A model generated the notes under the pieces. That model searched no databases, had not been told where the DNA came from, and worked only from the letters and a program-made list of their open reading frames with translations. This document shows positions 2,879-58,836 of a DNA stretch of 64,000 nt, piece by piece. The DNA comes from a virus (taxonomy: Duplodnaviria > Caudoviricetes). Numbering within the stretch: the first letter of the stretch is position 1; every line of letters begins with the position of its first letter. The translations under genes and the position numbers were made by a program. The DNA lies in the IMG/VR virus record IMGVR_UViG_3300033073_001153, positions 96,001 through 160,000 of that record, one strand, 5' to 3'.

Positions 2879-3376
2879 CTAAAATTGTGAGAGTACTCTA
2901 TTAACAAATTTTTCTTTTTGTTTTAAATCATTCCATTCTGGATAAGGCTCGCTGAGTCTGGGATGTTCGTCCATGAAATATTCTTCTAAATCTGGATGAT
3001 AAACATCACTTGGCTGTAATCTTGCTAATACTCGTATAGTGTCTTTTTGCAAGAGAGGTTCGCCGTCTGTGCCGTAACCTATTTCTTTGCCTTTTAATAG
3101 ATAAATGGGTCTTTCTGCCACGTCGATTAAAGTAACAACTTGATCATGATCCGCATCTTCTACGAACCATCTTTGATAATCCGGCCACCACTTTGCCCAG
3201 AAACACGAAATTCCCTTTTCGTACAAAGGCTCGTTTCCTTTTCCCACAATAGAATGACCGATTTTAGAAAACTTTCCCTCTGGGACATTGCCGAATCTTA
3301 TGTAGAACTGATCTTGTTCTGTGTTTTCTTTTAAAGTTTTTGTATAACTCTCCCAGATCATTTGTTCATCGTTCAT
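2879..3376 (-). CDS. MNDEQMIWESY-tag protein, unknown cargo domain
   Basis: N-terminal tag; TAAATA at 3382-3387. Confidence 0.8.
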   Translation of the reverse strand: MNDEQMIWESYTKTLKENTEQDQFYIRFGNVPEGKFSKIGHSIVGKGNEPLYEKGISCFWAKWWPDYQRWFVEDADHDQVVTLIDVAERPIYLLKGKEIGYGTDGEPLLQKDTIRVLARLQPSDVYHPDLEEYFMDEHPRLSEPYPEWNDLKQKEKFVNRVLSQF

Positions 3377-4271
3377 TTTAGTATTTAACAGTACGCTCGG
3401 ATCTTTAATATATCCAAGGGTTTTTAATGATTAGTAGTTACTAATAGAGGATTGTATATTAATTAGTAATCTTTATTACTTTTAGTTCCTTGACATCTTT
3501 TTCTCCCTACACGGAGCATTTATTCGTAGTATCGCTTTCTCGCTCGCTTGCTTGGTATCCTGTATTAAACCCTTCTGTATATGAATTCAAATGTCTTGTT
3601 TTATCCCAAAGATTAAACTCTCTTAATGACCAATGACCTGTTTTGACCCATTGGTACGCTTGATTAACCGAAATGTTTAGTATTTCTTCTTTTGTATTAT
3701 AAGAATCAATATTCATATTACTTAACATAATAATCTTTTGACATTAATTCACAGATGAACCAATTCTCAGTCTTAATGATTCGCTTAATTATCCTGAGAT
3801 TAATAGGACATCCCCATCGACCTTCTTTGGCAATCTCTCTAGCTTTCATTTTAGCACTAGCTTCGTCCTTAAAATGATAAGGTTCTCCGCTAAGAGTCTC
3901 ATGCAATTCATCCCATTTGTAGGTCATTTCTTCTGTCTTGTGATCGACATAACCTGCATGAAATTCGATTGTGTAATATTGTTCTTCTTTATGTATCATA
4001 AAACATCGAGCATTTATGTCATTACAGTATGAGTAGTCACTACATCTTCTTTTACTACTATATAGTTATGTGGTGGTCTGGATTTCCATTCCATCATACC
4101 AACACGATCTCTCAGCCTTACCATGTCAGTCTGTGCCTCTTCCAGAGTATTGTGTGGTAATGAAGTCCAATTACCAATCAAATTTTTAACTTTATAAATT
4201 GTTTTTGTGGTAGTCGTGTTCATGTCATTACTATCTCACATTAGTTTCTTTTTGTCTACATCTTTCGCTCC

Positions 4272-4961
4272 CTACATCTTATAATATTTTGTCTGCAATT
4301 CAATCAATGTTCGTAGTTCTTTCATAGTTCTATAATGAACTAGATCTTTCTTTTGTTCATCAAGTGGCAGATCTTGATAGGGCACATGAAGATGCTGATT
4401 GTAATCAGCTTTTGGATTACGCTGCATCCACTTTGTGTGGATATAATCTGCGCCTTTTTCTTCGTCATCAGGGAAAATGATTATAGCCTCAAAAGCAGCA
4501 AGAGCAGCACATTCGTTTTCTTTTCTCCACATGGTATCTAATTCTGAAAAAGGAACATTGATATCCACATCTTGATCTTCTTTGTTCTTTTTGATCCTTG
4601 GAACACTTTGGCCGTTGTTGGATTTGATCCAACTATTCCTCCATTCTTCATGGATATCCGAAGCAAATTTTTCCAAAATAGTATTTGTTTTTCCATCATG
4701 GAGCATATCAGTTTGTTCTACGACATTGTATTCCATGCCAGTATTACTTAGCATTTCTTGATCATACACAAAAAACAAAGGCTTACCATAAACTTTGGAA
4801 ATCCCCATCATAATAATTCCAACTCTTTTCTTGAGATTATTAACCATAATATCATATTGTTTAAGTGATTCTTCGGGATTAGTAGAAGACGTAATTCCTT
4901 CTCCATTGAAGTTATTAATAAGGAAATCTTTGATAAGTTTGGGATGGATTGTAATAAACAT
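4272..4961 (-). CDS. RyR-domain-like phage protein
   Basis: Two repeats of IH..W...VP(F/Y)..L....(K/R)K(E/D), the RyR repeat pattern. Confidence 0.55.
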   Translation of the reverse strand: MFITIHPKLIKDFLINNFNGEGITSSTNPEESLKQYDIMVNNLKKRVGIIMMGISKVYGKPLFFVYDQEMLSNTGMEYNVVEQTDMLHDGKTNTILEKFASDIHEEWRNSWIKSNNGQSVPRIKKNKEDQDVDINVPFSELDTMWRKENECAALAAFEAIIIFPDDEEKGADYIHTKWMQRNPKADYNQHLHVPYQDLPLDEQKKDLVHYRTMKELRTLIELQTKYYKM

Positions 4962-5072
4962 ATAATGATGTTATTGGATATTTTTGATAGTTTGTGTGTT
5001 GGTGTCTACACATTCTCACACTGGTTTCGGTCTGTCTACATCTTTTTCTCCCTACACGGAGCAGTTTTTTAT

Positions 5073-5758: not shown

Positions 5759-6196
5759 TTAAAGTTCGTAGTTTATTCTTCTGCTTGTGGGAGTCCAGCC
5801 TTTTCGATCTGTGAGTGTTAATTCAACAGGTTCTATTTTTTTTACGTTTAGTAACGGATAGCCGTACTTTACTTTGTCTTTCTTTATGTAGAATTTACTG
5901 TTTTTATCAACTAAATGTTTATCGTAATCTTTATCGAATTCTTCTTCGTTGTGGTAGATTACGGGTTCGCCAATGATTGCGGAACCCACTAGATATGATT
6001 TAGCTGGCTTACTTTTAGATGTACCAGTTTTAATGATACCCACACGTTTACCGATATATTGGTTTAGAGTGGGTTTGAATTTGGTTTCTATTGTTTTCTC
6101 GCCGCGAATGATCTGTCCGGTGAAGTCTTGGAGTTTATCATTAATATGTATACCCATATTTTGATAACTCTCCCAGATCAGTTCATTGTCATTCAT
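5759..6196 (-). CDS. MNDNELIWESY-tag protein with ASCH-like domain
   Basis: IIRGEKTIETK matches the ASCH GxKxxExR-type motif; TAAATA at 6203-6208. Confidence 0.7.
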   Translation of the reverse strand: MNDNELIWESYQNMGIHINDKLQDFTGQIIRGEKTIETKFKPTLNQYIGKRVGIIKTGTSKSKPAKSYLVGSAIIGEPVIYHNEEEFDKDYDKHLVDKNSKFYIKKDKVKYGYPLLNVKKIEPVELTLTDRKGWTPTSRRINYEL

Positions 6197-6236
6197 GATT
6201 ATTATTTAACTATCTTTTTCTCACTACATGGAGCAG

Positions 6237-6710
6237 TTAGATATCCGCATTCATTATATTTTCTACACCATTTTTTGTGTGTTCATCACTAGTATCCTTC
6301 CCAAGACAATACTTATCAATTAAGGATGTTGCATGATCTTCAGTTAAACCTAGCTTTTGTAATCTATCTAATAAATCATAATAAAGATTGTTGGTTAGGT
6401 TTTCATGCGTCTCCCAAACTCTGTCTTCAAAATTATCCACTGTTATGTCTTCTGTGTCTCTTGATCTTTGTAGATATTCATCTCGAAAGATACGAGCATC
6501 ATTCTCTTCTTGTGGTGTAATTGGTTGTCCTTTTTCCGAGTAATCTCTTCTATCAACATTAAATGTTTTTTCATAAAATGAAAAGTAATTCCAAACCATT
6601 CTTTTATAACCTCTAAAACCTTCCAATGTATCAATCAGTTCTTGTTTAATGGGACTGATTTGAACTTTTTGTTTTTTGTATGCCTCCCAGATCAGTTGTT
6701 CATCATTCAT
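6237..6710 (-). CDS. MNDEQLIWEAY-tag protein
   Basis: N-terminal tag; TAAATA at 6717-6722. Confidence 0.8.
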   Translation of the reverse strand: MNDEQLIWEAYKKQKVQISPIKQELIDTLEGFRGYKRMVWNYFSFYEKTFNVDRRDYSEKGQPITPQEENDARIFRDEYLQRSRDTEDITVDNFEDRVWETHENLTNNLYYDLLDRLQKLGLTEDHATSLIDKYCLGKDTSDEHTKNGVENIMNADI

Positions 6711-10890: not shown

Positions 10891-10894
10891 AAAT

Positions 10895-14105: not shown

Positions 14106-14108
14106 ACA

Positions 14109-15723: not shown

Positions 15724-16062
15724 TTAGTTAATTTTTTCCAAAGTTACACGGGAAATTCCACTCTTGACAATTCCTAGTCTCCGTGCAGCGACTAGGTTAA
15801 GATCTACAATACGGTTTTTAGTATATGGGCCACGATCCTCCACAACAGCCACAACCGTCTTTTTTGTGCGGTGACTGGTGATTTTGACCCTAGTGCCCAT
15901 AGGCAGGGTTTTATGAGCAACAGCAGGCAGGTGACGAACGAGTGGTTTTCCAGTAGCGGAACGAGTGTTTTCCGACCCGTACCAAGAAGCGACACCTTCT
16001 TGTTTATAGTTTGCTTCAGATACCGTAGGAATCAACATTAGGAAAAATAGGATTTTCTTCAT
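15724..16062 (-). CDS. rlpA: RlpA-like double-psi beta-barrel lytic transglycosylase with signal peptide
   Basis: GVASWYG, AHKTLPMGT, VEDRGPY, RIVDL motifs. Confidence 0.85.
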   Translation of the reverse strand: MKKILFFLMLIPTVSEANYKQEGVASWYGSENTRSATGKPLVRHLPAVAHKTLPMGTRVKITSHRTKKTVVAVVEDRGPYTKNRIVDLNLVAARRLGIVKSGISRVTLEKIN

Positions 16063-20752: not shown

Positions 20753-21766
20753 TTAGTTGAGAAGCAAATCCATTGCCTGTTGCTTCATTCGAGCACCTGC
20801 CCCAAGAATTGATCGTTCGAAACGTGCTTCAGCTTCGATAGAAATTCCTTCGTCAGAACGATTCTTACGAGCCTCCGTAAGGCGACCACCTTGATGATGA
20901 TCTACATATTCGGTAACCGCATTGAATAGATCCCATTTAGTACGACCATTGTTTCCCTTACCAGAAGTAAACAATGTGGCGATGTCATTACGACGATTGC
21001 TTGTACGAGTGGAGATTCTTCCTGTTTCTGGATTCAATTCGGCAGGAATTAGCGTATTTACAAATCCTTCAACATAAGACTTTGTAACTTCTTCTTCAGC
21101 AAGCTTATTCATTACAATTTGAAGATCATCGTAGAATGCGTTTGCAAATCCAAGAACTTTCGCAGCTTCATTCTTCTTTTCTGCAAAGTTTTTACGATGA
21201 TAAATCTTGAAACAATTTGTGTGGTTTCTAAGAGCTGCATTAAAAGTATTTTGGCATACGCACCTTACAGGCGTAATACAACCTGTCAATGCCTTTGATC
21301 CATCGTGACTTGTAAAGAACAAAACTTTCTTAACAGTCGTGTCATCTGGATTAGAATTTAGAAACAACTTTCCTTCCAACTCAGCCTGCATGAATACCAT
21401 ACGACCACCCTTCAACGATCCAGCAGTATCCCAAACTGCCTTACCAGAACCGATAATTTCATCGAAGAAACTAAATGCTTCGAGATTTTGGATCGGAGTG
21501 TAGCGAGCACTCATAATGGACAACGGATTGTAATTGTCTTTGCGACGAACAAGGAACTGATCCGGAACTTCCATCAGTTCATTGTCCAAAGGATTCTGGT
21601 GATACACCGGAACCTGCTCGACTTCCCAATCGAGAAGTGCTTCCTTGATTGCCTCCTCTGCCGTCAACTGACGATCAGAGAGTTGACCGAGTTGATGCCA
21701 TCCGCGAGTAACTGCTGAAAAGAATTCAGTACGTCCGTCTTCGCGTTGTGTGAGTTCGTGTGCCAT
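20753..21766 (-). CDS. DUF932 family phage/plasmid protein
   Basis: MAHEL..., WHQLG, TAGSLKGG, SHDGS, TPVRCVCQNT, WDLFNAVTEYVDH; start revised to ATG 21766. Confidence 0.85.
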   Translation of the reverse strand: MAHELTQREDGRTEFFSAVTRGWHQLGQLSDRQLTAEEAIKEALLDWEVEQVPVYHQNPLDNELMEVPDQFLVRRKDNYNPLSIMSARYTPIQNLEAFSFFDEIIGSGKAVWDTAGSLKGGRMVFMQAELEGKLFLNSNPDDTTVKKVLFFTSHDGSKALTGCITPVRCVCQNTFNAALRNHTNCFKIYHRKNFAEKKNEAAKVLGFANAFYDDLQIVMNKLAEEEVTKSYVEGFVNTLIPAELNPETGRISTRTSNRRNDIATLFTSGKGNNGRTKWDLFNAVTEYVDHHQGGRLTEARKNRSDEGISIEAEARFERSILGAGARMKQQAMDLLLN

Positions 21767-23531: not shown

Positions 23532-24113
23532 GTGAGAAAGTTTATTTGTTTCTTACTGGCTTGTTCATTCTTAGTAATTAACAAGATAAATGCAGAAGAA
23601 GATATGTCTTTTTTAATTAAACGAGCATTTCTTGATACTATAGAAAAAATACCAACACGTGAAGAAATAGAATGGTATCTTGTTTATAATAAAAATGGTT
23701 ATTCAATGGCTATTGATTGGCTATTAAATAACAAACAATATAAATGGAACATTTCAAAAGAATATGCTAAAATTCTTCTTTTATCCAAAGAATATCAGCA
23801 TCTTCCAAAGATGAAATTAAATCAATTACAACTTCGTAAAAACTTGCTTTATGTTGTTGGTATGAATGAAGAACCAACAATAGAAAATGTAGAAATTGCC
23901 AAGTTAAGTTTAATTAAAATGGCTATTGAATCTGGTGGAACTGAAAGTGAAATAATAGACTACATGGCTAATTCACTGATGTGTAGAAATACTAACTTAA
24001 CAGAGAGTAATATTTTAGGAAAGATTATTAGAGAATCTTCTAAAGATGAAAACGGCACATGGTTAGATGTGCTTAATACTATATTAGAATTTGAGGACGT
24101 GAAAACGAAATAA
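23532..24113 (+). CDS. secreted protein with DUF1549/PSD1-like motif
   Basis: Signal peptide; LIKRAFLDTIEKIPTREE resembles the PVC RRxxLDLxGRxPTxEE motif. Confidence 0.5.
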   Translation: MRKFICFLLACSFLVINKINAEEDMSFLIKRAFLDTIEKIPTREEIEWYLVYNKNGYSMAIDWLLNNKQYKWNISKEYAKILLLSKEYQHLPKMKLNQLQLRKNLLYVVGMNEEPTIENVEIAKLSLIKMAIESGGTESEIIDYMANSLMCRNTNLTESNILGKIIRESSKDENGTWLDVLNTILEFEDVKTK

Positions 24114-27496: not shown

Positions 27497-28450
27497 TTAG
27501 CGTAGGAGAACAAAAATTAGTGCAACTATTACGAACCCAATAATGAAGAGTAAATTTTCGTTTTTCCAAAATGGAGGCAACGGTTCTATTGGTTCTAGTG
27601 GTTTGTTTGGTTTCGGTTCCTCTGGTTTTGGTGGTTCTGGTTTTGGTGGTTCGGGAGGACGTTCGTCTTCAGAAGTACGAATAGTCCAGAAATCAAAACA
27701 ATAATTAGGAGTTAACATTGAGTTAAGAGGAATATGTACATATCCTTCACAAGCAAAATATTTACCCCATGAATTTCTAACTAATATAACATAATCATTT
27801 AGTTCTTTTTCAAAATAATAACCAACTGCCAACATACAGTGCCCACCAAGATACTTTTCTTTTGTTACCATTGGGTGCGGATATATTTCATAAAACATTA
27901 CTTGTTTATAATGTTTAATGAAAGAATCATAAATCTTCATCCCAAAAGTGAACGGATATCCGTCAGATAAACATCCTAGTAATTCTTCTTTTGTTTGTTC
28001 TAAACGAAAATAAGAAAGCGATTGATGCTTTTCGGCATCAACCCAAGCTTCTTTAGGAGGTTCGTCTTTAAATTTAGCTATATCATAAGGCCAAATTTCA
28101 TCTTTTGTTACTCCGTATTCAACAGTAGCTTTTAGTGCTTCTCTAGCAGTTGCACCAGAATCTTCGTCAATTGATCCACGTAATTTTCTAGTGGCATAAT
28201 AAGTAAACAATTGCGAAGTAGGCCACGATGTAAGTTTTGTTTTAAACCTTACGTATCTAACCAAATCATTAGTTGCGAATGATGTACAAGCTCCTAATGT
28301 TCCTTGATTATGAACATCTCCAAACCACCATCCTGTTTTTGCATCTTCTCTAAGATCTACCGATTCTTTAAATACAGGTTCTTCTACTGTTTTTAAACGA
28401 TAGTCGCGTTCGTCATGTGTATCTGGTTCACATCCAAATGAATAGTTCAT
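27497..28450 (-). CDS. papain-like (C1A) cysteine protease with Pro-rich linker and C-terminal TM anchor
   Basis: QGTLGACTSFA, GGHCM, RNSWG; PEPPKPEPPK linker; hydrophobic tail. Confidence 0.85.
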   Translation of the reverse strand: MNYSFGCEPDTHDERDYRLKTVEEPVFKESVDLREDAKTGWWFGDVHNQGTLGACTSFATNDLVRYVRFKTKLTSWPTSQLFTYYATRKLRGSIDEDSGATAREALKATVEYGVTKDEIWPYDIAKFKDEPPKEAWVDAEKHQSLSYFRLEQTKEELLGCLSDGYPFTFGMKIYDSFIKHYKQVMFYEIYPHPMVTKEKYLGGHCMLAVGYYFEKELNDYVILVRNSWGKYFACEGYVHIPLNSMLTPNYCFDFWTIRTSEDERPPEPPKPEPPKPEEPKPNKPLEPIEPLPPFWKNENLLFIIGFVIVALIFVLLR

Positions 28451-28469: not shown

Positions 28470-29348
28470 CTAGTAAAAACACATGAGCTTCAACACTGCA
28501 AGATCTTTTTGTTTTGCTTCGATCTCAATATCTACATCTACTGCACAATGTGGAATGTTATTGATATAATCGGCATGAGCACGATCTAAACTGTGTGCTT
28601 TACCTTCACTATGATGAAACAAAGGAACCGTATCTTTCCAAGTACCCACACAAACTTCGTGTGCAGTTTCTTCTAGTTCACCGTCGTTGTTAATCAAACG
28701 ATGATGATAATCTAGTGTAATCGGAATGTTTGGGAAATACTTGTATAGATTCTGATACTTCCAGAATGACTTGTCTTCTGTTTCAAATACCAAACGATTC
28801 ATAACACTACTAGATAGTTTGGGTAGATTACGATCTACTTGTCTGATAGCAATTTCTGGATTGTTACCATTACTAACATGAATATTAATAGGACAAAAGT
28901 GACTACTTGGAATATTTAGCATATCAAACATCTTGGCATGATATTCTAGATTACGAACACCATTAGTATTCACGTCATCTTTGGGAGAAGAAATAATACA
29001 GAACTGATCTGGGTGTGTACTGAGCCGACCACCGTTAGCCAAATACTTTTGAACACTCATTCTTGCTGGAATCCAAAAGACTTCTTTAGAACAAAATAGA
29101 TTCCAGTATTGTTCGAAGTCTGGATGATCTGCCAGAGGAAACATATTCGACGAAATACGATAATGACGAATATTTTTAAGAGTCAAATAACCTAGAACTT
29201 TACAAAGCTCAGAGAGATTATGACGATAAACATCAAAGATTTTGTCTTGTTTGTTAGACAAGTCTTTGGTACGATTTAACTGAAGTGTCTTGAAATCAGA
29301 TTTCTGACCCAACGTGATACAACATACACCCAAACGGTTCTTAAACAT
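28470..29348 (-). CDS. uvsE: UV damage endonuclease
   Basis: YRISSNMFP, HPDQF, INIH, LDYHH, HADY, IEAKQKD. Confidence 0.9.
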   Translation of the reverse strand: MFKNRLGVCCITLGQKSDFKTLQLNRTKDLSNKQDKIFDVYRHNLSELCKVLGYLTLKNIRHYRISSNMFPLADHPDFEQYWNLFCSKEVFWIPARMSVQKYLANGGRLSTHPDQFCIISSPKDDVNTNGVRNLEYHAKMFDMLNIPSSHFCPINIHVSNGNNPEIAIRQVDRNLPKLSSSVMNRLVFETEDKSFWKYQNLYKYFPNIPITLDYHHRLINNDGELEETAHEVCVGTWKDTVPLFHHSEGKAHSLDRAHADYINNIPHCAVDVDIEIEAKQKDLAVLKLMCFY

Positions 29349-29382: not shown

Positions 29383-30615
29383 CTATTCTTCTACAAAAAA
29401 ATCGGTAGATTCTCCCAAACGAAACCTATCACTGGGAGCTAAAATTACATTTAGCACGCTTTTTATTTTTTCGTTTACGGCTCGGTTTCCATATGCAACA
29501 TACAATCCTAATGCTTCGCAAAAAGCTTCTTCTGCGTTTTTATTAGCATAACCAGTAATAGGAGTATTTGGTACTACAACTTTTCCTTTTATTTGATTGT
29601 TTTTATATGCGTCTACTAAAGATTGTAAATCATAAATGCCATAATGACTAGTAGCATAATTATGAAATAATGCTTCGGCTTGTAGATATAAAATAGGATT
29701 TTCTGTTTTCATTCGTGTTTCGAAATCACGAGATTTTTCATTTTCTCCCATCATATTCACTATTTCTTCTACATCTATTTCAATTTTATCACTAATAATA
29801 AATTCGTACCAAAAGTTTCTACTTTCTTCTGATAAAGATTTGTATATATGATGACCCATTTCATGAGCCAATACTCTTATAAAAGCTTCTTCTTTATTTT
29901 CTTTTGAAGCCCATGCTGTTAATATAATTTTATTATATTCATATAATCCAGCAGAATTAGAATTATCATAAGTATCAAATTCCATATGAATTTCTACCGG
30001 AAGTCCATATCTTAACATTAAAGGAGCTACTTTTCTTGCTCTTTCTACATAAGAATTGATATAATACTTTAATCTTGGTAATCTAGATTTATTTTTATCA
30101 TTCAAACCTATAAAAATAAAAGGAATTCCGTCTACTTTAAAAGTGTGTTTTTCTAAATTTAATTTTAAATCTAAATTTGGATTATTTTCTAAAAATCTTT
30201 TAAATTCAGTCCAAGTTAAATTAGCTTTTTTATTAGCTAATCTTTTTAGATTAATAAGTTTTTTTAAATTATGTTCGTCTCGTCTTTTACTGTATTCTTC
30301 TAATTCATATTTTATATCTCTTAAATGACTTAGTAATTCCCAAAGTGGTTGTCTTACATATGCAGTATGAATTTTTTTATTTTCTCCCCATTTATACATC
30401 AATGTACTAATATCATCATAATAATTGATTACTTTTAAAAAAGGATCTTTTAATTTAGTAGCATTTTCAGGAGTTAATTTAGTTCCTATATTTTTAATTA
30501 TAATATCGTAATCATTTTTTAACTTATCAATAAATTCAATATTTATATCAGTATCTGATTCTTCTAAAAGAATTTTAGATACGTAAGATTCCCAAATCAA
30601 ATCAACATCATTCAT
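29383..30615 (-). CDS. MNDVDLIWESY-tag protein with zincin metallopeptidase-like domain
   Basis: LAHEMGHH plus downstream YA..N.EEAFCEA (lethal-factor-like arrangement). Confidence 0.7.
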   Translation of the reverse strand: MNDVDLIWESYVSKILLEESDTDINIEFIDKLKNDYDIIIKNIGTKLTPENATKLKDPFLKVINYYDDISTLMYKWGENKKIHTAYVRQPLWELLSHLRDIKYELEEYSKRRDEHNLKKLINLKRLANKKANLTWTEFKRFLENNPNLDLKLNLEKHTFKVDGIPFIFIGLNDKNKSRLPRLKYYINSYVERARKVAPLMLRYGLPVEIHMEFDTYDNSNSAGLYEYNKIILTAWASKENKEEAFIRVLAHEMGHHIYKSLSEESRNFWYEFIISDKIEIDVEEIVNMMGENEKSRDFETRMKTENPILYLQAEALFHNYATSHYGIYDLQSLVDAYKNNQIKGKVVVPNTPITGYANKNAEEAFCEALGLYVAYGNRAVNEKIKSVLNVILAPSDRFRLGESTDFFVEE

Positions 30616-30814
30616 AGTTATTTCGCTCCAGATTCTTTTAGATGTTTTTGTACAGCTTTCAATAATGCTTCCACTTTCTTATCATCATCTACTTTCTTCG
30701 TGATGATTCTCTTAAAAGTTTTTTTGAGCTTCTGATCCATTGCTTCGTCACCTTTGTGTTCGGTTAAAACAGATTCAATTAAGTTTAAGAATTTAGAAGC
30801 CATATAGATATTTA

Positions 30815-31537: not shown

Positions 31538-31842
31538 TTTGTGTTCACTAAAATTGCAGAAACTACTGATAGAATTATTCCAAACCACTGAAGATTTGAA
31601 ATATTATCGCCCATACACTTCAATCCCAACTGATATCCTATTGAAGTAGACACAGTAATTAGTACTGACTGCTGTGTCAAGGATAAAGTAGAAAGTTTCA
31701 ACATAAAATATCCACCAGTCATCATCAGCAAACTACCAAATAATGTAAACCATGTAGGCAAATTTCCACGCTGGATGTGAACATTCACAAAAGCTAATCC
31801 AAAACAAACGAAGAAATAATAGAAATAAAAGAATAAATTCAC
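31534..31842 (-). CDS. small 4-TM SMR/DMT-like membrane protein
   Basis: Four hydrophobic segments, C-terminal ISNLQWFGIIL; similar to 54358-54669. Confidence 0.55.
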   Translation of the reverse strand: MNLFFYFYYFFVCFGLAFVNVHIQRGNLPTWFTLFGSLLMMTGGYFMLKLSTLSLTQQSVLITVSTSIGYQLGLKCMGDNISNLQWFGIILSVVSAILVNTK

Positions 31843-32500: not shown

Positions 32501-33127
32501 TTATTTGACAACTAGTTGTGGATCGTAACCAAATTCAAAAATACTATTAGCATCTGTAAAAACATCACGTGCAAATACAGTTTTCTTTAAAATTTTATAT
32601 TCTCCTCTTAAACTAGCTTCTCCGTGTTCAACTGCATATCCTCTCACAGTAGTAACCCAATCACCACGATTGATGTCTATTTTTTGTTCTTCAATTTGTG
32701 GTGAATTTTTTATTTTTTCTAATTCATTATGAATATAATCGAAATATTTAGAAACATTATAAAATCCTGCTTTAGCCATGCTTTTTTTAATTTTAGGACT
32801 TTTATCTGCTCTACGAAGAATTTCGCTTTTTTCGTATTCTAATCGGTCTATTATATCTTCTCTTGATTCTATTTTTGGAACTGCACGGTAAATTACAACT
32901 TTAGCATTAGGACGATTACGATAACTGTGCATTATTGAAATTGCTTGTCCATCTAATGGAGATGCATCGCCGTAATATTGAGCCGCTTTTGATGAGTAAA
33001 TATCATCTGGATAAATTTCAGTTAAATTCCAAAGTGGAGCAGAACCTTCACCTTTTGTTGGAGCTTGATGCTCTCCTCTGTAATCAGTGGATTCTAAAAT
33101 ATTCTTAACTATTTCATCAAAACGCAT
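32501..33127 (-). CDS. MRFDEIVKNILES-tag protein, possible ADP-ribosyltransferase-fold domain
   Basis: VIYRAVP...GDWVT...YAVEHG...EFGY pattern; TAAATA at 33133-33138. Confidence 0.5.
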   Translation of the reverse strand: MRFDEIVKNILESTDYRGEHQAPTKGEGSAPLWNLTEIYPDDIYSSKAAQYYGDASPLDGQAISIMHSYRNRPNAKVVIYRAVPKIESREDIIDRLEYEKSEILRRADKSPKIKKSMAKAGFYNVSKYFDYIHNELEKIKNSPQIEEQKIDINRGDWVTTVRGYAVEHGEASLRGEYKILKKTVFARDVFTDANSIFEFGYDPQLVVK

Positions 33128-33662: not shown

Positions 33663-34934
33663 TTAAGCTAGAAGATCCTTCACAACTACTCCATCTTTAA
33701 CAATAGCTGACGGTCTTCCACCTGCTGCCATAAGTTTTGTTTCTGGATCAATTCCAAGCTGATTATACATCGTAGCAGCTAAATTTTCAACTGTCAATGG
33801 ATTTGATTCCACATCACTTCCAGTCGCATCAGATGATCCATAAACATAGCCACGTTTAAATCCACCCCCAGCAAATACAACAGAGAATACTCGGGGCCAA
33901 TGATCTCTACCCGCATCTTTATTAATTTTTGGAGTACGTCCGAATTCAGAAGATATCATAACTAATGTAGAATCTAACATACCACGTTGATCTAGATCAT
34001 TAATCAGTGTTGCATATGCCTGATCAAATGGTGGTAGTTGTTTACCAATTCCATTAGCAATTCCACTGTGCATATCCCATCCACCATAAGTTACCGAAAC
34101 AAATCGTACACCCGCTTCTACTAATCTTCTAGCCATTAGTAATCTCTGTCCGGCTTGATTCATTCCGTATGCCTCACGCATCACTTGAGATTCTTTATTT
34201 AAATCAAATGCTTCTTTAGCTTTTGGTGAAGAAATTAAATCAAATGCCTTCTGATAAAATGTATCCATTGCTGCTAAATTATCACTAGATTCTAAATAAC
34301 GGAAATGACTATCAACTGTATCTAATATACTTCTTCTTCTTTCAAAGCGTTCTTCTCCGATTTCTACATTTAAATCGCGAACCTTGAAACCATTATTTGC
34401 TGGATCATTTCCTAAACTAAAAGGTCCATACGCTTTTGATAAGTACCCACTATCTGCTGGATCATTACCATTATTACCAATCTTTTGTGGAATACAAACA
34501 TATGCTGGTAAGTTATTCCGGTCTCCTAATTGATTAGAAACTACAGATCCAAATGAAGGATATTCTAATGCAGGAGAAGGACGATATCCAGTAAACATAG
34601 AAGTCACTCCACGTTCGTGTGCAGCTTCTCCGTGTGTCATAGAATGTACTACAGTAAGCTTATCAGCAATTTTAGCTGTCTTTTGTAAGTATTCTGAAAA
34701 TTGTAATCCAGCAACAGAAGTAGAGATGGCTTTTAATGGTCCACGATACTCAGAAGGAGCCAGTGGATGTGGATCAAATGTCTCATGCGATGCAGCACCA
34801 CCCGGCAAGAAGATATGAATCACCGACTGTGCTTTAGGTGTTAATGAGGATTCTGCTTGTAATTTAAGAATATCACCCATGGATAATCCCAACCCACCTA
34901 CAAGCCCAGTGTAGAGAAAGTCTCTTCTGTTCAT
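33663..34934 (-). CDS. DUF1501 family protein with Tat signal
   Basis: MNRRDFL, IFLPGGAASHETFDP, ARRLVEAGVRFV, WDMH, SEFGRTPKIN, GRDHWP; TAAATA just upstream of ATG 34934. Confidence 0.9.
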   Translation of the reverse strand: MNRRDFLYTGLVGGLGLSMGDILKLQAESSLTPKAQSVIHIFLPGGAASHETFDPHPLAPSEYRGPLKAISTSVAGLQFSEYLQKTAKIADKLTVVHSMTHGEAAHERGVTSMFTGYRPSPALEYPSFGSVVSNQLGDRNNLPAYVCIPQKIGNNGNDPADSGYLSKAYGPFSLGNDPANNGFKVRDLNVEIGEERFERRRSILDTVDSHFRYLESSDNLAAMDTFYQKAFDLISSPKAKEAFDLNKESQVMREAYGMNQAGQRLLMARRLVEAGVRFVSVTYGGWDMHSGIANGIGKQLPPFDQAYATLINDLDQRGMLDSTLVMISSEFGRTPKINKDAGRDHWPRVFSVVFAGGGFKRGYVYGSSDATGSDVESNPLTVENLAATMYNQLGIDPETKLMAAGGRPSAIVKDGVVVKDLLA

Positions 34935-35060
34935 ATTACTATTTAACAAAAAAGCCACACAAATTTTACTCTGTGTGGCTAATTTTCAGCAGGATTTCTA
35001 TGTTACTACATTCCAATCATAACAAGACCTATATACCAGTGGGGTCGTGGTTACTGAAAG

Positions 35061-35462: not shown

Positions 35463-36077
35463 TTACCACGTATTGGTTTCTGGATTAAAAGTTTTAGTTT
35501 GTTTTAACGTAAAAATTTCAATTTTTGGTATATCTTCATCTGTAACTTTATCTCCAAAAAATTCTTTTTTTGACATTAATCTTTTAGATATAATTATAAA
35601 TTCTCCAGATGTAATAGCTTCCTCGTAATGAAAATCTATAGGAAAATTATCATCTTTTAATTCTTTTATTTCATATTTTGATAACATATCATATGGGACT
35701 ATTTTAGTTCCTTTTGGAAATTCAAAAATAGTATCACCCCATGATGTTGCATTAAAAATGCTACCACTCACGGCCATTAATGATATTTTTATTATTTCGT
35801 TAATTTTATATAATTTATTTTTTTTGTTTTCAAATCCATGATATAATAATTCTTCCGATCCTATAAAATCAGAATTTATATATTTCATAAACTTTTTAAC
35901 ATCTTTTTTTTCATGAGTTGTTAAAGAATTGGTATAATACTTATAATCTGGAATTCCCATCAATTCTGCTGCATATCCCGCCATTCTAGTACTTGTTCCT
36001 CTACTAGCACCCCACGCAGCAGATCCTATTTTTCTTCTTTTTGAATATGCCTCCCAAATTAATTGCTCGTCATTCAT
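35463..36077 (-). CDS. MNDEQLIWEAY-tag protein, possible ADP-ribosyltransferase
   Basis: LLYHG...AVSGS...IFEFPKGTK...YEEAI resembles ART strand motifs; TAAATA at 36087-36092. Confidence 0.55.
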   Translation of the reverse strand: MNDEQLIWEAYSKRRKIGSAAWGASRGTSTRMAGYAAELMGIPDYKYYTNSLTTHEKKDVKKFMKYINSDFIGSEELLYHGFENKKNKLYKINEIIKISLMAVSGSIFNATSWGDTIFEFPKGTKIVPYDMLSKYEIKELKDDNFPIDFHYEEAITSGEFIIISKRLMSKKEFFGDKVTDEDIPKIEIFTLKQTKTFNPETNTW

Positions 36078-38350: not shown

Positions 38351-40054
38351 CTACTTCTTCACACAATTAGGTACTTTCTTCTTACCTTTTTTCTTCATGC
38401 CTACTTGTTTGAATCCTTTCCAGCAAGCTTCAAGGAAAAATTGTTTAAAGGATTCTAATTTAGGTTGGTTTCTTTGTCTGGATGTTTCCATAGCTTTTTT
38501 AATATCTGATTCCCAAAATTTTACAAGATTTCCTGTAAAATCAAAATAATTAATATCACCAACTCGATATGGCAATCCTTCTAATGAGATTAATTTATTA
38601 TATGCACATTTAAACGCGCCACCGACACGGTATGGTGCTTCTTTTAAGGTGGTTAATTTATTATTATCACAATCAAATGTACCACCAACATACTGTGGTG
38701 CTCCTTTTAGGGTGGTTAATTGATTATATGCACAATTAAATCCACCACCAACATACTGTGGTGCTCCTTCTAGGGTGGTTAATGTATTATTTATACAATT
38801 AAATCCACCACCAATACGATATGGTGCTCCTTCTAGTGTGGTTAATTGATTATCATGACAACTAAAACTAAAACCAACATATTGTGGCGCACCTTCCAAA
38901 GTAGTTAATTGATTATTATGACATTTAAAACTACCACGAACATATTGTGGTGCTCCTTTTAATGTAGTTAATTGCATATTGGAACAATCAAAATTACCTT
39001 CACATTTTATGTTTGTTAAATCTGGCAATTCCATAAAAAATACTCCAGATAAATCAACATCTCCATAAATTTTATTATTCTCTACTCTTTGCATTAAATC
39101 TGAAATTATTTCTTTTTGTATTGGCTCTATTTCAGATTTATAAATTTTATTAAATTTTTTAGAATCTATAGAATAAAATTTGTGATTCCATTTAATCATT
39201 CCTATATTCCCCCCATCATGAATAACTTCATAATTATTGTCTTCTATAAATTCCCTACAAGATTTTCTATATTTTTCACTAACACTTCTGTTTGCTGGCC
39301 CTTTAATTTCATTAATTTTAAAATTATTTTCGCCATAGAATTTTTGTAATCGAAATGTTACTACTGGATGATTATGTTTTTTTGGGTCTCTTAGAGAATA
39401 TATTATCAATTCTCCTTGTTTAAATTGTCTAAAGTATTCACTTTCTCCGCCTTCTACACTAGTTACTTTACTTTCTCCTTCTGCTTGTCCTACGCAGTGT
39501 CCCATATACATGCTCTCTTCTCTGAACGACTTATTAGATGTCAATTTCCAAACTGGATAGCCATCATATACTCCAACTACTTCATAATCTACTCCTTCTA
39601 CACTTTGTAATTTGGCTTTCTTAGCCTTCTCTGCTGATCTAGCCATTTCTTCGTCCCATTTTTGTACTTCTTCAAACATTTGTGGAACCATAATTTTATA
39701 CAAAGATTTCAAATAATTATCATCTTTGGTATTCAAAAAATCTATTAAATGACTTAAACGATCTTTATATTCAGAAGTAAAATTATTAAATTGAAATATA
39801 CCTTCTTTCTTTGCCCATTCTGGATCAGTTTCTTTTGCTGTATACTTTGAAATAAATGGTGTTTTTATATTATCATCAGCAGGTGATTGAAACCATTTAA
39901 TATAAGTTTTTAAAAACCAATTAACTATTTCGGGCTTCTGTACGTTCTTTTCTTTTAATAGTTTTTCTAATTCTAAATGTAAGGGATCTTTAGAAATTAA
40001 ATTAGCTTCATGTAAGCTAGTGTACTTTTCCCATATTAATATAGAATCATTCAT
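38351..40054 (-). CDS. MNDSILIWEKY-tag protein: PcfJ-like domain, 22-aa leucine-rich repeats, basic C-terminal peptide
   Basis: EESMYMGHCVG...IYSLRD...EIKGPAN; repeats FxCxxNQLTTLEGAPQYVGG; TAAATA at 40061-40066. Confidence 0.75.
   Translation of the reverse strand: MNDSILIWEKYTSLHEANLISKDPLHLELEKLLKEKNVQKPEIVNWFLKTYIKWFQSPADDNIKTPFISKYTAKETDPEWAKKEGIFQFNNFTSEYKDRLSHLIDFLNTKDDNYLKSLYKIMVPQMFEEVQKWDEEMARSAEKAKKAKLQSVEGVDYEVVGVYDGYPVWKLTSNKSFREESMYMGHCVGQAEGESKVTSVEGGESEYFRQFKQGELIIYSLRDPKKHNHPVVTFRLQKFYGENNFKINEIKGPANRSVSEKYRKSCREFIEDNNYEVIHDGGNIGMIKWNHKFYSIDSKKFNKIYKSEIEPIQKEIISDLMQRVENNKIYGDVDLSGVFFMELPDLTNIKCEGNFDCSNMQLTTLKGAPQYVRGSFKCHNNQLTTLEGAPQYVGFSFSCHDNQLTTLEGAPYRIGGGFNCINNTLTTLEGAPQYVGGGFNCAYNQLTTLKGAPQYVGGTFDCDNNKLTTLKEAPYRVGGAFKCAYNKLISLEGLPYRVGDINYFDFTGNLVKFWESDIKKAMETSRQRNQPKLESFKQFFLEACWKGFKQVGMKKKGKKKVPNCVKK
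38560..38995 (-). repeat. 66-bp coding tandem repeat, about 6-7 units
   Basis: Recurrent ggtgctccttcta/ttttag..gtggttaattg units on + strand. Confidence 0.8.
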
Positions 40055-40066
40055 GATTAGTATTTA

Positions 40067-41164
40067 TTAATTTAAATTACCTTCAAATAAATCTGGTCTG
40101 TTTTCTTCTAAAAATTTTCTATTATTTTCAGATAAATCAGATATTTTAAAATTATTTTGTGGTAAGTATCCACTTGATGTTAGTTTCTTAATAAAGAAAT
40201 CATTATCTTTTTTTAACATCAACAACTTTAATATAGCATCATGATATTTTTCAACTGGTTTTGTGTTTTGGGAACCTTTTCGTTCAGACAAAGATCTATC
40301 ATTGACATGATACATAAATGTTAAATGTGGGGCAGCTATAATTCTTCCTCCTTTATTTGTTATGGTACGATAACTAAGTAACTTTGTATTTTTGTCGTCA
40401 ACTCCGCCAGATACATTATTCCCACAATGTCCCATTGCTCTTCCTTCTTGTGTACAAAAAGAACTATCAATTATTTGCCATTCGTTATTTTCATCAATTT
40501 TTAATAAAGTTTTTGTTCTTTTTGTCTTTAAATCATTAGTAATGTCTACTATACCTTTAGAGGTTTTTTGCCATTCATGTTCAATATTTGCAAAATTTTC
40601 AAGCACATATTCGATAGATTGATTAACAAACCTAAAATCATCTATTTGTTGTATGTTTAGTGCTAAATAATGTTCTAGTTTTTCTAATAAAGTTTCCGTG
40701 CTAACTTCTATTGCACTGTAATATTCTATATCAAAGAAATCTGCTTTGAGATATTGTAATTTCATAAACTCTTCATAATATTCTGGATGTTTGGTTTTAA
40801 GAAAATATTCTATATTTGAACCACTTGCTTTTGTATCTACACGAATATGAAAAAGTTTTTTGTCAATTACTGCACAAATAGTTTCATTTATCGTTTTTCT
40901 AATATACCACTGAATAATATCATCTCTTCTAAGTTTATCTATTACATTTTTTAAACAAAACTTAAATTCTATTAAAAATTTAATTCTAGTATGATTGTAG
41001 TATACAACATCCATTTCACAATTAGCTGGATTATATATGCTATTTAATGGTTTTGCATCTGGAAATAATTTGAATAATTTATTGTACATATTCAAATACC
41101 TATTCACGCGAGATTCTTGTATAATCTCTAGATATCTTTCCCAGATAATATGCTTATCATTCAT
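40067..41164 (-). CDS. MNDKHIIWERY-tag protein with PcfJ-like domain
   Basis: EGRAMGHCGN...LLSYR...PHLTF...ERKGSQNTKP; TAAATA at 41170-41175. Confidence 0.7.
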   Translation of the reverse strand: MNDKHIIWERYLEIIQESRVNRYLNMYNKLFKLFPDAKPLNSIYNPANCEMDVVYYNHTRIKFLIEFKFCLKNVIDKLRRDDIIQWYIRKTINETICAVIDKKLFHIRVDTKASGSNIEYFLKTKHPEYYEEFMKLQYLKADFFDIEYYSAIEVSTETLLEKLEHYLALNIQQIDDFRFVNQSIEYVLENFANIEHEWQKTSKGIVDITNDLKTKRTKTLLKIDENNEWQIIDSSFCTQEGRAMGHCGNNVSGGVDDKNTKLLSYRTITNKGGRIIAAPHLTFMYHVNDRSLSERKGSQNTKPVEKYHDAILKLLMLKKDNDFFIKKLTSSGYLPQNNFKISDLSENNRKFLEENRPDLFEGNLN

Positions 41165-45322: not shown

Positions 45323-45324
45323 AA

Positions 45325-46452: not shown

Positions 46453-47526
46453 TTATTCAATATCTTTCATATATTCAGAAGTAGAAGTAGGTTTTATTTG
46501 TTGCTTTTGAGTTTTCTTAGCTTGAAGAAGTTTTTCTAAAGTAGATAATTGTTTATCTTCTTTTTTAGGTTTCTTTTCTTTTTCTTCTAATTCTTTAGCA
46601 ATTTTCTTTTCTTCATCTGTCATTGGAGGAAATTGAAAATCGCTTTCTGCCATATTTTCGACGAAAGAATTTGTTTTGTATTTCATACCATGAACTTTTA
46701 CAAAAATGCTTTTATCATTTTCGATTGTTCCACGGCATTTTAAACAATCAATACATTGTGTTCCGTCGAGATTATATTTACAGAATGTTTCGTCGGTATC
46801 TTTTTCTTCCCAAGTTGGACTGACTCTGAATGTTCTCCAACCTAAACTTTTTGCTTTTACATATTCATCTGGCGTATCTACTGATGCCATGAAGAATTTT
46901 TTATATTCTGGAAATCTTTCCCATTGATGAGTGTAACCAGTAATACGTCCGCCACAAATTTCAGTTAAAAATCTAACCATTTCTAAAGGAATACGTACTG
47001 GTTCACCGTAAGCACCAAAACGGATAGAACTTCCTTCGAATAATCCTTTCCATAATTCTGTGTTTGTTGGTACTCCATTTTCAGAAGGAAGATCTGGATA
47101 CTTTCCTTTTTCAAAAGATTCCCAAACTCTATCTACACCTTGTCCCACATTTACATAACAACTGGTTCCTCTGTGTTTACAGTTAAAACAAACAATAGCA
47201 TCTTGTCCAGTTTTAATTGCAGTACTTGGTTTGACTTCAGAAGGAATAATATAAACCTGAACCATTGGTCCGGTTTTTTCATTTGTACTCGGACTCATTA
47301 ATCCAACTGCTACGCAAACATATTTGCTTCCTCTGTAAATAACAACACCGTTACAATCGGTTTGAGAAGCTTCAGTTAAAAGAGAATTGTATTCTTCTAC
47401 ATAGGATTCTTCTAAATGACATCCACACTGAACACATAATTTATTTTTACTGTGTTTATTATGTGTTTGTCTTTTATTTTGTAAATAAATTTCTGATATG
47501 AGTTCAATATCTTCTTTCTTGTACAT
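46453..47526 (-). CDS. Cys-rich gp88-like / radical-SAM-related phage protein with N-terminal tag
   Basis: NEKTGPMVQ, VCFNCKHRGTSCYV, RFGAYGEP, TGYTHQW, MASVD, GWRTFRV, CIDCLKC. Confidence 0.6.
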   Translation of the reverse strand: MYKKEDIELISEIYLQNKRQTHNKHSKNKLCVQCGCHLEESYVEEYNSLLTEASQTDCNGVVIYRGSKYVCVAVGLMSPSTNEKTGPMVQVYIIPSEVKPSTAIKTGQDAIVCFNCKHRGTSCYVNVGQGVDRVWESFEKGKYPDLPSENGVPTNTELWKGLFEGSSIRFGAYGEPVRIPLEMVRFLTEICGGRITGYTHQWERFPEYKKFFMASVDTPDEYVKAKSLGWRTFRVSPTWEEKDTDETFCKYNLDGTQCIDCLKCRGTIENDKSIFVKVHGMKYKTNSFVENMAESDFQFPPMTDEEKKIAKELEEKEKKPKKEDKQLSTLEKLLQAKKTQKQQIKPTSTSEYMKDIE

Positions 47527-49202: not shown

Positions 49203-49207
49203 AATTT

Positions 49208-56643: not shown

Positions 56644-57012
56644 ATGTTGAAATTTAACCAACTAATGGACGAGATCCTAACTGAATCAAAGAAAACTGTC
56701 AACGAATTTGAAAAATTTGTCGAAGCTCGCAAGAGTGGTGCGGATAAAATTAGAAAAACGGCAGAATCAAAGGGTGGACCTGCAAAGCTAACGGCAATTC
56801 ATTTCGCCGCCAAAGAAAAACCTTATAATCAAGCTCTACGTACACTAGAAAAGCCAGATTTTGAAAAAACAATAAAGTCCAAAGCAAACGCTCTAGCAGC
56901 AAGAATACAAGGATGGCACAAGATGACTCAACGTGAGTTTCAAGATCTGATGGGTCAGTTGGAGGCATATGGTGAAGTGTATTTAGAGCACAAAAAAAGC
57001 TCACACCGTTAA
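56644..57012 (+). CDS. MLKFNQLMDEILTE-tag protein
   Basis: TAAATA upstream; second tag class. Confidence 0.7.
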   Translation: MLKFNQLMDEILTESKKTVNEFEKFVEARKSGADKIRKTAESKGGPAKLTAIHFAAKEKPYNQALRTLEKPDFEKTIKSKANALAARIQGWHKMTQREFQDLMGQLEAYGEVYLEHKKSSHR

Positions 57013-57024
57013 GTGTGAGCTTTT
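56995..57024. terminator. bidirectional terminator
   Basis: AAAAGCTCACAC / GTGTGAGCTTTT between convergent genes. Confidence 0.75.
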
Positions 57025-57036
57025 AAGTGATTCGGT

Positions 57037-58836
57037 TTACCGTAGTAGACTCAAATAATGTACGGTATAAGATTCTCCCATAATAGATTCTATTGATTTT
57101 CCTTTTGCTCCTTTACCCATAGCTACTAATTTCTTAACGAAATTATTATATTTAGAAGCATCAATTTCGCCGCCGCCTTCACGTTTAAATTTGTCTAATG
57201 CAGACATTTTAATTTTATCTCTCCATGATTTTGGATCTAATGGTTCTCCATTATATTTTTGGAAATCTGCTGAAGTAGCAGATACGTCTCCGGTTCCTCC
57301 AGTGTAATCACTATCTCCTCCTGCTTCGGTGTCTCCTGTATCACTGGGTTTTAATGGTTGAGCATTTCCTACCGAATCTGATGTATGATCATCAAACATT
57401 CCTTTAATTACACCACCAATTGCTCCTGCTGCTGCTCCTTTTCCTGCTCCTTTTAATACAGATTTTCCTAATTCTTTTCCAGAAAACTTTTTATTACTAA
57501 ATCCTTGTGAAGCAATATTTTTAGCAGCACTAGTACCAGCACCAAATAATGCGCCACTAGCAGCACCAGTAGCAGCAGTTCCTAGGGTTCCTCCACCAAA
57601 TAAACCTGCTTTTGTTAACATCGGAATTAACACTGCTGGTCCACCAACGGCAACACCAATAGCAGCAATAATTCCCAATAAAGTACCAGCAGTACGTTTT
57701 GGATTAGCTTTTACCCAATTAATTGCTTTACGAATAATTCCTTCTTTATTCTTTGTAGCAGGCGCAGATACTCCTGTATATGGTAATTCTTTAGATTTTA
57801 TATCAGAAGTAGTAGAAGAAATAGGTTCTACTTGAATATCATCTGATTTTGGTTCTATCCTAGTAAGATTAGAAGACCCTCCATATCCTAACTGTGGGGA
57901 TACTCTTTCTTTTCCTGAAGAAACCGGAACTAAAGAACCTTCATCACCTTTTAAAACATCAGTTTTTGGTCTCTTACCTAAACTAGTAATAGGAGCACGT
58001 TGACTAACTTGATCTTTGCCTCCTAATTTCTTTGATAAAGTTTCACTAAACTTAGCGATTTGTTTATCGGAATATTTTTTCTTTAATTCGTCTGCCACTT
58101 GTTTTGCATACTTAGCAATAGACATCGGCTTTTCTTTCGATTCTGCCTTTTTTCCTTTTGTACTTTGATTAGATTTTTTTTGTCGTTCTTCTTCTTGTTT
58201 TTTATTTAAAGTTTCCGCATTTTCTCTTCTTTTTCGTTTAACAATTGCTTTATGTGGATTGCTCCTTTTTTCGATTGTTTCTGGAAGTCCTTCGGCATAT
58301 TTTTTTGAATATCCTGATACTACTTTTGCTTCTGTTAAAATTTGTTCATTAACAAATGAATAACGTTCTAACATTCTTTGAATATTAGATTCAGTTAATA
58401 CGCTAGAAGCAAAGAAAAGTTTATTTAAATAAACTGCCTCGTTATTAGTTGCTGGTTCTTCTGAAGAGGCTTCTTTATTTAAAGTAGCCATTCCTTTCTT
58501 AGCGAGTTCTTTTAACTTTTCTGGATCTTTTAAATCTTCAATTCCTTTTAAATCCTCTGGAGTAGCAGTTTTCTTAATTAAACTGAATAATAATTGTATT
58601 CCTTTATTAGCTACATAAGAAGCAGCTTTTCCTATTCCGCCTTTAACTTTACTGAATGCATCTCCTAACATTCCTTCTGTAACCAATTCTTGGATACATT
58701 CTAAATCATATTTGTATAAATCATGAATTTGTTTAAGAGGATCAGAACTATAAAAATCTGCTACACTTTGTTCTAAAATGAATTGCTTTCGGTGATTAGA
58801 ATAAGCCTCGAAAATAGGATCAGTACTATACTTCAT
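57037..58836 (-). CDS. large tagged protein with Gly/Ala-rich hydrophobic region, candidate ejected membrane-inserting protein
   Basis: N-terminal PIFEAY; multiple (I/L)xE sites; glycine-zipper-like GxxxG runs; TAAATA at 58843-58848. Confidence 0.55.
   Translation of the reverse strand: MKYSTDPIFEAYSNHRKQFILEQSVADFYSSDPLKQIHDLYKYDLECIQELVTEGMLGDAFSKVKGGIGKAASYVANKGIQLLFSLIKKTATPEDLKGIEDLKDPEKLKELAKKGMATLNKEASSEEPATNNEAVYLNKLFFASSVLTESNIQRMLERYSFVNEQILTEAKVVSGYSKKYAEGLPETIEKRSNPHKAIVKRKRRENAETLNKKQEEERQKKSNQSTKGKKAESKEKPMSIAKYAKQVADELKKKYSDKQIAKFSETLSKKLGGKDQVSQRAPITSLGKRPKTDVLKGDEGSLVPVSSGKERVSPQLGYGGSSNLTRIEPKSDDIQVEPISSTTSDIKSKELPYTGVSAPATKNKEGIIRKAINWVKANPKRTAGTLLGIIAAIGVAVGGPAVLIPMLTKAGLFGGGTLGTAATGAASGALFGAGTSAAKNIASQGFSNKKFSGKELGKSVLKGAGKGAAAGAIGGVIKGMFDDHTSDSVGNAQPLKPSDTGDTEAGGDSDYTGGTGDVSATSADFQKYNGEPLDPKSWRDKIKMSALDKFKREGGGEIDASKYNNFVKKLVAMGKGAKGKSIESIMGESYTVHYLSLLR

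Follow-up and report, generated by a model that had tools for sequence, protein, structure and literature searches.

An N-terminal tag on unrelated late proteins of an uncultured T4-like phage: a candidate capsid-targeting propeptide of a new sequence class

The capsid-targeting sequence (CTS) of phage T4 is a short N-terminal leader found on unrelated late proteins. It reads M-K-T-Y-Q-E-F-I-A-E↓A (the arrow marks the cut) in the internal proteins (IPs) IPII and IPIII, has related propeptides in IPI, Alt and gp24, and is removed by the gp21 protease (PMC9026906, PMC3012670, PMC5694885; Mullaney and Black 1996, as cited in PMC3012670 and PMC9026906). Positions 4 and 7 of this leader have been mapped as targeting residues and positions 8 and 10 as processing residues, and both Alt and gp21 are processed at their two ends (PMC9026906). 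The N-terminus of T4 gp21 itself has been proposed as a possible core-targeting propeptide (PMC9026906). Among T-even phages, the IP genes form polymorphic sets with a conserved CTS (Repoila 1994, as cited in PMC3012670). In the giant phages phiKZ, 201phi2-1 and SPN3US, head-internal proteins are also cut after Glu by a gp21-related protease, and their propeptides often contain several redundant sites (PMC5694885, PMC9026906). Here we describe an 11-residue N-terminal tag, M-N-D-x2-[L/M/I]-I-W-E-[S/A/K/R]-Y, on unrelated late proteins of an uncultured T4-like phage. The window, that is, the whole stretch of 64,000 nucleotides analysed, comprises bases 96001-160000 of a 242,607-bp IMG/VR virus record (IMGVR_UViG_3300033073_001153, hereafter G000) with 31% G+C. 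The data presented below indicate that the tag is probably a T4-type capsid-targeting propeptide of a new sequence class.

The tag starts seven open reading frames (ORFs) of the window, all on the minus strand. A first-pass annotation of this DNA had listed these starts (3376, 6196, 6710, 30615, 36077, 40054 and 41164) together with two looser cases, and the motif could be read in each of the seven. The nine ORFs, and four further strict copies found by pattern match elsewhere in G000, are the following.

2879..3376, minus strand: tagged ORF of 165 aa, with the tag at 3344-3376 and L-K-E, the second site, ending at residue 17
5759..6196, minus strand: tagged ORF of 145 aa, from the most widespread cargo family (nine tagged members)
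6237..6710, minus strand: tagged ORF of 157 aa, a singleton cargo
29383..30615, minus strand: tagged ORF of 410 aa with a zincin-like cargo; the site L-L-E ends at residue 18
35463..36077, minus strand: tagged ORF of 204 aa, lacking a second site
38351..40054, minus strand: tagged ORF of 567 aa with a PcfJ-like cargo; the second site L-H-E↓A ends at residue 16
40067..41164, minus strand: tagged ORF of 365 aa, probably PcfJ-like; the second site I-Q-E↓S ends at residue 17
57037..58836, minus strand: ORF of 599 aa with the loose F-variant P-I-F-E-A-Y at residues 7-12; I-L-E ends at residue 22
46453..47526, minus strand: ORF of 357 aa with a weak tag match, rejected as a member
G000 58465, minus strand: further strict copy
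G000 86878, plus strand: further strict copy
G000 87889, plus strand: further strict copy
G000 89039, plus strand: further strict copy

A degenerate DNA pattern of the tag gave seven matches in the window, compared with 0.00 in 100 dinucleotide-preserving shuffles, and 11 matches across G000, where a reversed control pattern gave 0. Within window ORFs, I-W-E-x-Y occurs solely at residues 7-11 of the seven tagged ORFs. In all 22 copies from G000 and two relatives (G001, 236 kb, and G002, a short contig), the tag occupies residues 1-11 and is never internal to a called protein. The looser case at 58836 is credible, since relatives use L-I-F-E-x-Y and the G001 orthologue retains the variant; that at 47526 was not accepted, its tag match being weak, and its homologues are only hypothetical proteins of unrelated phages. 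A tag-less orthologue was also sought, and the candidate, G001 4041 (plus strand), failed because its true start retains I-I-W-E-R-Y. The G001 orthologue of 40067..41164 has the core I-I-W-E-R-Y behind an altered start. A 53-aa ORF at window 2009-2170 (minus strand), which starts M-N-E-M-M-F-E-I-Y and lacks an upstream TAAATA box, may be a degenerate copy. A literature search for the motif returned no match.

We then examined how widely the tag is distributed. G001 has ten strict copies and one L-I-F-E-A-Y copy, and G002 has one. BLAST shows no relation among the bodies behind the tag, and G000 and G001 have only five families in common. A metagenome scan yielded 98 matches on 87 stretches (metagenome loci carry L-numbers). 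TAAATA precedes 58 of these matches; the pattern had placed no constraint on position 6, and each of the 58 has L, M or I there; those lacking TAAATA mix real copies with obvious chance ones, such as nine-codon ORFs. Other genes shared with G000 (35-92% identity) were found at 33 of 56 real-looking loci versus 2 of 24 chance-like loci. The pooled set comprises 88 unique tagged proteins in 47 cargo families (single-linkage BLAST), with about 70 added by the metagenomes, and 77 of its 94 tagged ORFs stand behind TAAATA. More distant complete relatives (64-67% protease identity) have one to three late ORFs with D-x-x-L-I-F-E-x-Y. This distribution over relatives and metagenome loci makes the tag a trait of one clade of uncultured T4-like phages, within which it has multiplied in the branch of G000 and G001.

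Codon use in the 22 copies bears on what is being conserved. Asn2 is encoded by AAT/AAC at 18:4, Asp3 by GAC/GAT at 12:10, Ile7 by ATC/ATA/ATT at 10:6:6, Glu9 by GAA/GAG at 15:7 and Tyr11 by TAT/TAC at 15:7; Leu6 draws on five codons that span the two Leu families, and Ser10 is written as either TCT or AGT. Because synonymous codons vary so freely at invariant residues, selection acts on the peptide and not on the DNA, and the conservation is not due to a recent duplication, to a scar of recombination or to an element acting at the RNA level. A shared start that is a functionless by-product, either such a scar or an RNA element aiding the translation of leaderless late mRNAs, would suit the position of tagged genes in variable regions and the probable start of their mRNAs at or near the ATG, where 5' coding sequence could matter. 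It is nevertheless highly improbable in view of the codon data, of about 90 other late genes that have the same promoter layout and no motif, and of the retention of the peptide, with W/F exchange, in relatives down to 61-64% head-protein identity.

Upstream of the ATG, the tagged genes have only the TAAATA box in common. As previously noted, TAAATA lies no more than 10 nt from the ATG in eight of the nine listed ORFs, and the ninth, 30615, is second behind a TAAATA-headed ORF of 61 aa (30618..30803, minus strand), with which it forms a two-gene unit; it starts 3 nt behind that ORF, has GGAG upstream, and the 61-aa product has a leader of its own from another class, M-A-S-K-F...L-T-E. Ten of the 11 tagged genes in G000 show the TAAATA layout, and the tagged genes are therefore late genes. 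The same layout, TAAATA-N5-6-ATG, precedes 104 of 353 called G000 genes, including tail, baseplate and head genes, so the box is not special to the tag. As nothing is conserved upstream of it either, the portable promoter-plus-tag cassette proposed in the first-pass annotation was not borne out. Late mRNAs are probably leaderless or nearly so, because the box stands 5-6 nt from the ATG with no Shine-Dalgarno sequence between them at these 104 genes (for example, window 3377-3390 and 6197-6210). The cyanophage-like contig L208 has the same TAAATA layout as G000.

G000 encodes a T4-type head module, whose portal, core, protease, scaffold and gp23 genes occupy about 51-64.5 kb of the genome; gp22 lies at 61875-62762 and a gene for a 213-aa protein at 61192-61833. 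Its prohead protease is a Peptidase_S77 protein of the gp21 type (PF03420; G000 60512-61183, E 6.5e-30, 101 bits, Pfam), and its gp23 matches PF07068 (G000 62867-64465, E 7.5e-88, 291 bits, Pfam). The [L/I]-x-Glu cutting rule of T4 is very probably kept in this phage, because in a pairwise alignment with T4 gp23 the maturation site C-L-R-E60↓A-N-V aligned exactly with T4 L-T-E65↓A-E-I, and because the scaffold homologue starts M-A-T-E-I-T-K-L-L-K-E↓A. The protease of G000 itself starts M-S-L-R-L-I-V-E.

The tag fits this rule at two places. Residues I7-W8-E9 form an [L/I]-x-Glu site, which is followed at residue 10 by Ala or Ser in 38 of the 47 families. A second [L/I]-x-Glu, with its Glu at residues 12-21 (peak 16-17), is present in 24 of 47 families, compared with a background of 8, 6, 3 and 5 of 47 (6-17%) in the next four 10-residue windows. 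In 15 of the 24, this second site is followed by Ser, Ala or Gly, and in half of the families it stands 5-8 residues beyond I-W-E. Late genes of G000 are enriched for [L/I]-x-E at residues 3-13 (32/104 versus 31/249 other genes). Variants that have lost Glu9 retain a downstream site; these have K or N in P0070, P0076 and P0100 (P-numbers denote PcfJ-like homologues) and D in G001 38735. The Glu9-to-Asp variant, found at L018 18735 (the same as G001 38735, plus strand), keeps the downstream L-T-E↓G.

The best evidence for capsid targeting came from a natural exchange of leaders on the PcfJ-like cargo. In 38351-40054 and its homologues, the body begins [A/V]-N-L-[I/F/V/Y]-S-K-x-P-L, and in 13 close homologues it is preceded by the M-N-D tag plus L-[H/N]-E. 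Homologues with other leaders (39-40% identity, E <1e-90) have M-R-F-S-D-L-C-L-L-L-E before the body in P0092 (40% identical), M-N-F-N-K-L-T-E-I-L-L-E in P0113 and the 10-mer M-E-T-F-R-S-Y-I-L-E in P0117, and all of these leaders, with the M-N-D form, end in hydrophobic-x-Glu at one alignment column. The P0117 10-mer matches the T4 CTS at M1, T3, aromatic 4, aromatic 7, I8 and E10. The contig of P0092 has heme-oxygenase and bilin-reductase genes, which are typical of cyanophages. On this one cargo family, the M-N-D tag thus seems to be interchangeable with T4-CTS-like leaders.

The swap also helps to locate the cut. The first-pass annotation had placed it right after the Glu of I-W-E, which fits the motif but is only one option, the junction conserved in the swap being the second site at about residue 16. 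We read M-N-D...Y as a putative docking element and the conserved junction as the probable cut. I-W-E may then be cut in addition or instead, which would agree with the redundancy of sites in giant-phage propeptides (PMC5694885) and with the Glu9-lost variants.

The same observations speak to another account, in which the tag is a handle for a dedicated non-head partner, such as a chaperone, a modifying enzyme or a sorting factor. Its invariant M-N-D, Trp8 and Tyr11 exceed the needs of a cleavage site, as such a handle might. Against this, the tag swaps with T4-CTS-like leaders at a protease-type junction, the protease motif is enriched in the tag and the likely oldest carrier adjoins the protease gene. 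The recurrent neighbours of tagged genes are UvdE, DUF932, DPBB, a papain-like protease, DUF1501 and a PP-loop protein, and no partner is found among them; nor do they include a radical-SAM/SPASM gene, and the tag is unlike a Ser-rich 16-mer. A non-head handle is therefore distinctly unlikely in our judgement.

Other unrelated late proteins of G000 carry a leader of a second class, M-[K/R/N]-F-[D/E]-x-[L/I]-x-x-[K/N]-[L/I]-L-E. This class is nearer to the T4 gp24 and IP leaders and also occurs on PcfJ-like homologues in a cyanophage-like contig. Second-class leaders are found at the following positions.

Window 30618-30803, minus strand: second-class leader
Window 32501-33127, minus strand: second-class leader
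Window 56644-57012, plus strand: second-class leader
G000 83122, minus strand: second-class leader
G000 86404, minus strand: second-class leader
G000 66837, minus strand: second-class leader
G000 31227, plus strand: second-class leader

The oldest carrier of the M-N-D tag is likely to be the family of the gene that lies divergently beside the protease gene (G000 59420-60448, minus strand). Its product starts M-T-T-D-S-V-E-I-F-E-S-Y...L-N-E↓A, and its orthologues in relatives with at least 80% protease identity start M-x-[N/E]-D-x-x-[L/M]-I-[F/Y]-E-x-Y-x3-[L/I]-x-E-A. Loci of this founder family include L031-L056 and L109. Among its 20 members, D4, F9, E10, Y12, E18 and A19 are nearly invariant, the middle drops to 16% identity, and a C-terminal tail, x-E-S-[Y/F]-x-x-F-I-[K/R]-V-I-P-F, is conserved. 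This pattern suggests a head-internal protein processed at both ends, and the conservation of the tail suggests that it may be a docking element. A shared C-terminal cleavage tail was sought on the tagged proteins and is real only in the founder family. A tblastn search of cultured phages with the founder protein gave no match.

The founder family raises the question of whether tagged proteins survive in the head. The tag could load the prohead core while the tagged proteins are core or scaffold-like components that the protease degrades and that are then expelled. Consistent with this, the founder gene lies in the head module and its product combines cleavage-type motifs at both ends with a fast-evolving, partly low-complexity middle, like T4 gp67, gp68 and gp22. 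At locus L161, too, a gene for a tagged helical protein of 153 aa lies in the head module directly after gp22 or gp23, and the gp23 of this locus is 61% identical. Most tagged bodies, by contrast, look folded, including the zincin (predicted local distance difference test, pLDDT, >90), the PcfJ-like proteins of 500-570 aa and an isochorismatase, and the tagged families vary between close relatives (as the few common to G000 and G001 illustrate), which is typical of accessory cargo and not of assembly parts. Degradation in the core is possible for the founder family and unlikely for the folded enzymes, and as a general explanation we consider it unlikely.

More tentatively, the two leader classes (M-N-D...I-W-E-x-Y and M-K-F-D-E...L-L-E) might sort cargo to distinct core partners or layers and thereby set copy number or ejection order. 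The M-N-D class would then dock on the 340-400-aa protein encoded beside the protease gene, which would serve as a cargo hub, inner-body-like in a T4-type head. We regard this idea as rather doubtful.

The cargo labels given earlier held in part: the PcfJ-like and HExxH zincin assignments stood, and the ASCH, ART-like and Gly-rich membrane region assignments were unconfirmed. The product of 38351-40054 matches PF14284 with 25.1 bits against a cut-off of 25, most of its close homologues carry PF14284, and its paralogue at G000 58465 (minus strand) scores 29.1 bits; 40067-41164 is likely to be PcfJ-like as well (Atlas score 0.94). The C-terminal 26 residues of the 567-aa ORF (38351-38430) form a Cys-containing, Lys-rich segment, C-W-K-G-F...V-P-N-C-V, which matches the interiors of several unrelated PHROGs (E about 1e-6) and may be a portable module; the paralogue lacks this motif. 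In 29383-30615, H251, E252, H255, E363 and E367 are invariant in 36 homologues (H-E-M-x-H plus two downstream Glu). Its top Foldseek and PDB-profile matches are all zincins, and because their E values are weak (0.005-0.06) the fold match alone is only suggestive. We class the cargo as a zincin-like metallopeptidase. An AlphaFold2 model of this 410-aa protein, built on the 36-sequence alignment, has a mean pLDDT of 84.8 with a body above 90; the stretch of residues 3-19 is modelled as a helix of pLDDT 40-51 standing apart from that body. In distant zincin homologues the N-terminal leader is of another kind, and some of these proteins have Topo IB or GNAT domains fused to them; the genomic context of one such homologue was uninformative. 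Zincin peptidases are the commonest domain of the "polyvalent" proteins that are transferred together with DNA (PMC5512222).

On a marine contig, L175:538-1074 (plus strand), the tag is fused to a complete isochorismatase/nicotinamidase-type domain that starts at profile position 2, nine residues past the tag. The isoelectric points (pI) of the mature cargos range from 4.8 to 9.5, and the cargos therefore do not, as a group, have the basic, DNA-binding character of the T4 IPs. Pfam and PHROG searches with 30 tagged or neighbouring proteins came back mostly blank. For 2879..3376, which has a tagged homologue in metagenome locus L192, Pfam, PHROG and Atlas gave nothing firm beyond a sub-threshold Arr-like lead from Atlas. 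The AlphaFold2 model of the 145-aa family (5759..6196), to which the earlier ASCH label presumably refers, was poor (pLDDT 51), and this family had no PDB sequence or profile match and no Pfam match.

Taken together, the gp21-type protease, the motif fit, the second site, the founder gene and the swap make prohead loading by a CTS-like leader the best-supported explanation; of the model first proposed for this DNA, the promoter cassette and a sole cut at I-W-E were not supported. The detached leader helix of the modelled 410-aa cargo and the isochorismatase domain that begins shortly behind the tag point the same way as the evidence for loading. Late in infection, each tagged protein would be made from its own TAAATA late promoter. 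Its N-terminal helix, M-N-D-x2-L-I-W-E-x-Y, would dock it on the scaffolding core of the assembling prohead, and the gp21-type protease would remove the leader after hydrophobic-x-Glu, at I-W-E (residue 9), at the second [L/I]-x-E↓[S/A/G] around residues 14-18, or at both. The mature cargo would remain in the head and probably enter the host with the DNA, as do T4 IPI-III and Alt. We infer docking, cleavage, head retention and injection alike by analogy with T4.

Several observations weigh against this explanation. Between the tag and the T4 IP CTS there is a general shape in common and no sequence similarity. The Trp before Glu and the invariant Tyr two residues past the putative cut are unexplained by the T4 rule. 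Among the 11 tagged proteins of G000, four lack a second site, and in five Glu9 is followed by Lys or Arg. Whereas the T4 IPs are basic, many of these cargos have an acidic pI (4.8-6.3), and an isochorismatase-like protein, as a metabolic-enzyme cargo, would be odd for an injected effector. There is no near cultured phage: cyanomyoviruses provide the best cultured match to the protease, at 41% identity. A megablast search of cultured phages with the whole window gave no match.

The comparison with known systems defines what is new. Like the T4 CTS, the tag is a short N-terminal leader on unrelated late proteins; it has [L/I]-x-Glu at its end and a small residue next, the phage has a gp21-family protease and a T4-type head module, and the tagged cargo sets differ between relatives as the T-even IP genes do. 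Unlike the T4 CTS, it has an invariant M-N-D, Trp8 and Tyr11 and is often bipartite, with the second site 5-8 residues on. There are 11 tagged proteins per genome and at least 47 cargo families, compared with four to five proteins in T4, and many are acidic or enzyme-like. We call it a new CTS-like class and not the same CTS because only the general shape is common to both. The N-terminus of T4 gp21, M-N-E-P-Q-L-L-I-E↓T-W, resembles the tag (M, N, acidic, x, Q/x, L, hydrophobic, hydrophobic, E, x, aromatic), but it is on one protein, its role in targeting and cleavage is hypothesised, and gp21 of G000 starts differently. Propeptides of the phiKZ type run to 80-160 residues, do not constitute a common portable tag and are cleaved at A/S/G-x-E, and G000 belongs to the T4 lineage, not to that of phiKZ. 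The concept is thus already known from T4; what is new is the sequence class, its construction in two parts, the breadth of the repertoire, the founder gene in the head module and the swap series.

Other genes of the window lie near the tagged ORFs or may bear on the host. They are listed below.

27497-28450, minus strand: papain-family C1 peptidase
28470-29348, minus strand: UvdE UV endonuclease
30815-31588, minus strand: PP-loop ATPase
20753-21766, minus strand: DUF932 protein
15724-16062, minus strand: DPBB lytic-transglycosylase-like protein
33663-34958, minus strand: DUF1501 protein, full-length match, E 9e-115
23532-24113, plus strand: PSCyt2/DUF1549-like secreted protein, weak match

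Families of the DUF1501 and PSCyt2/DUF1549 types are strongly expanded in Planctomycetota and Verrucomicrobiota, and the two genes may hint at the host.

If the tag is a loading signal, it would provide a listing, read from genomes only, of proteins that abundant uncultured freshwater and marine T4-like phages carry into their hosts, and its 47 cargo families, with the zincin peptidase, the PcfJ-like proteins and the isochorismatase among them, would be the first place to look for functions in early takeover and counter-defence. The swap series, together with the bipartite layout, also hints at how targeting and cleavage are divided among the residues, and this could extend the toolbox of T4 packaging.

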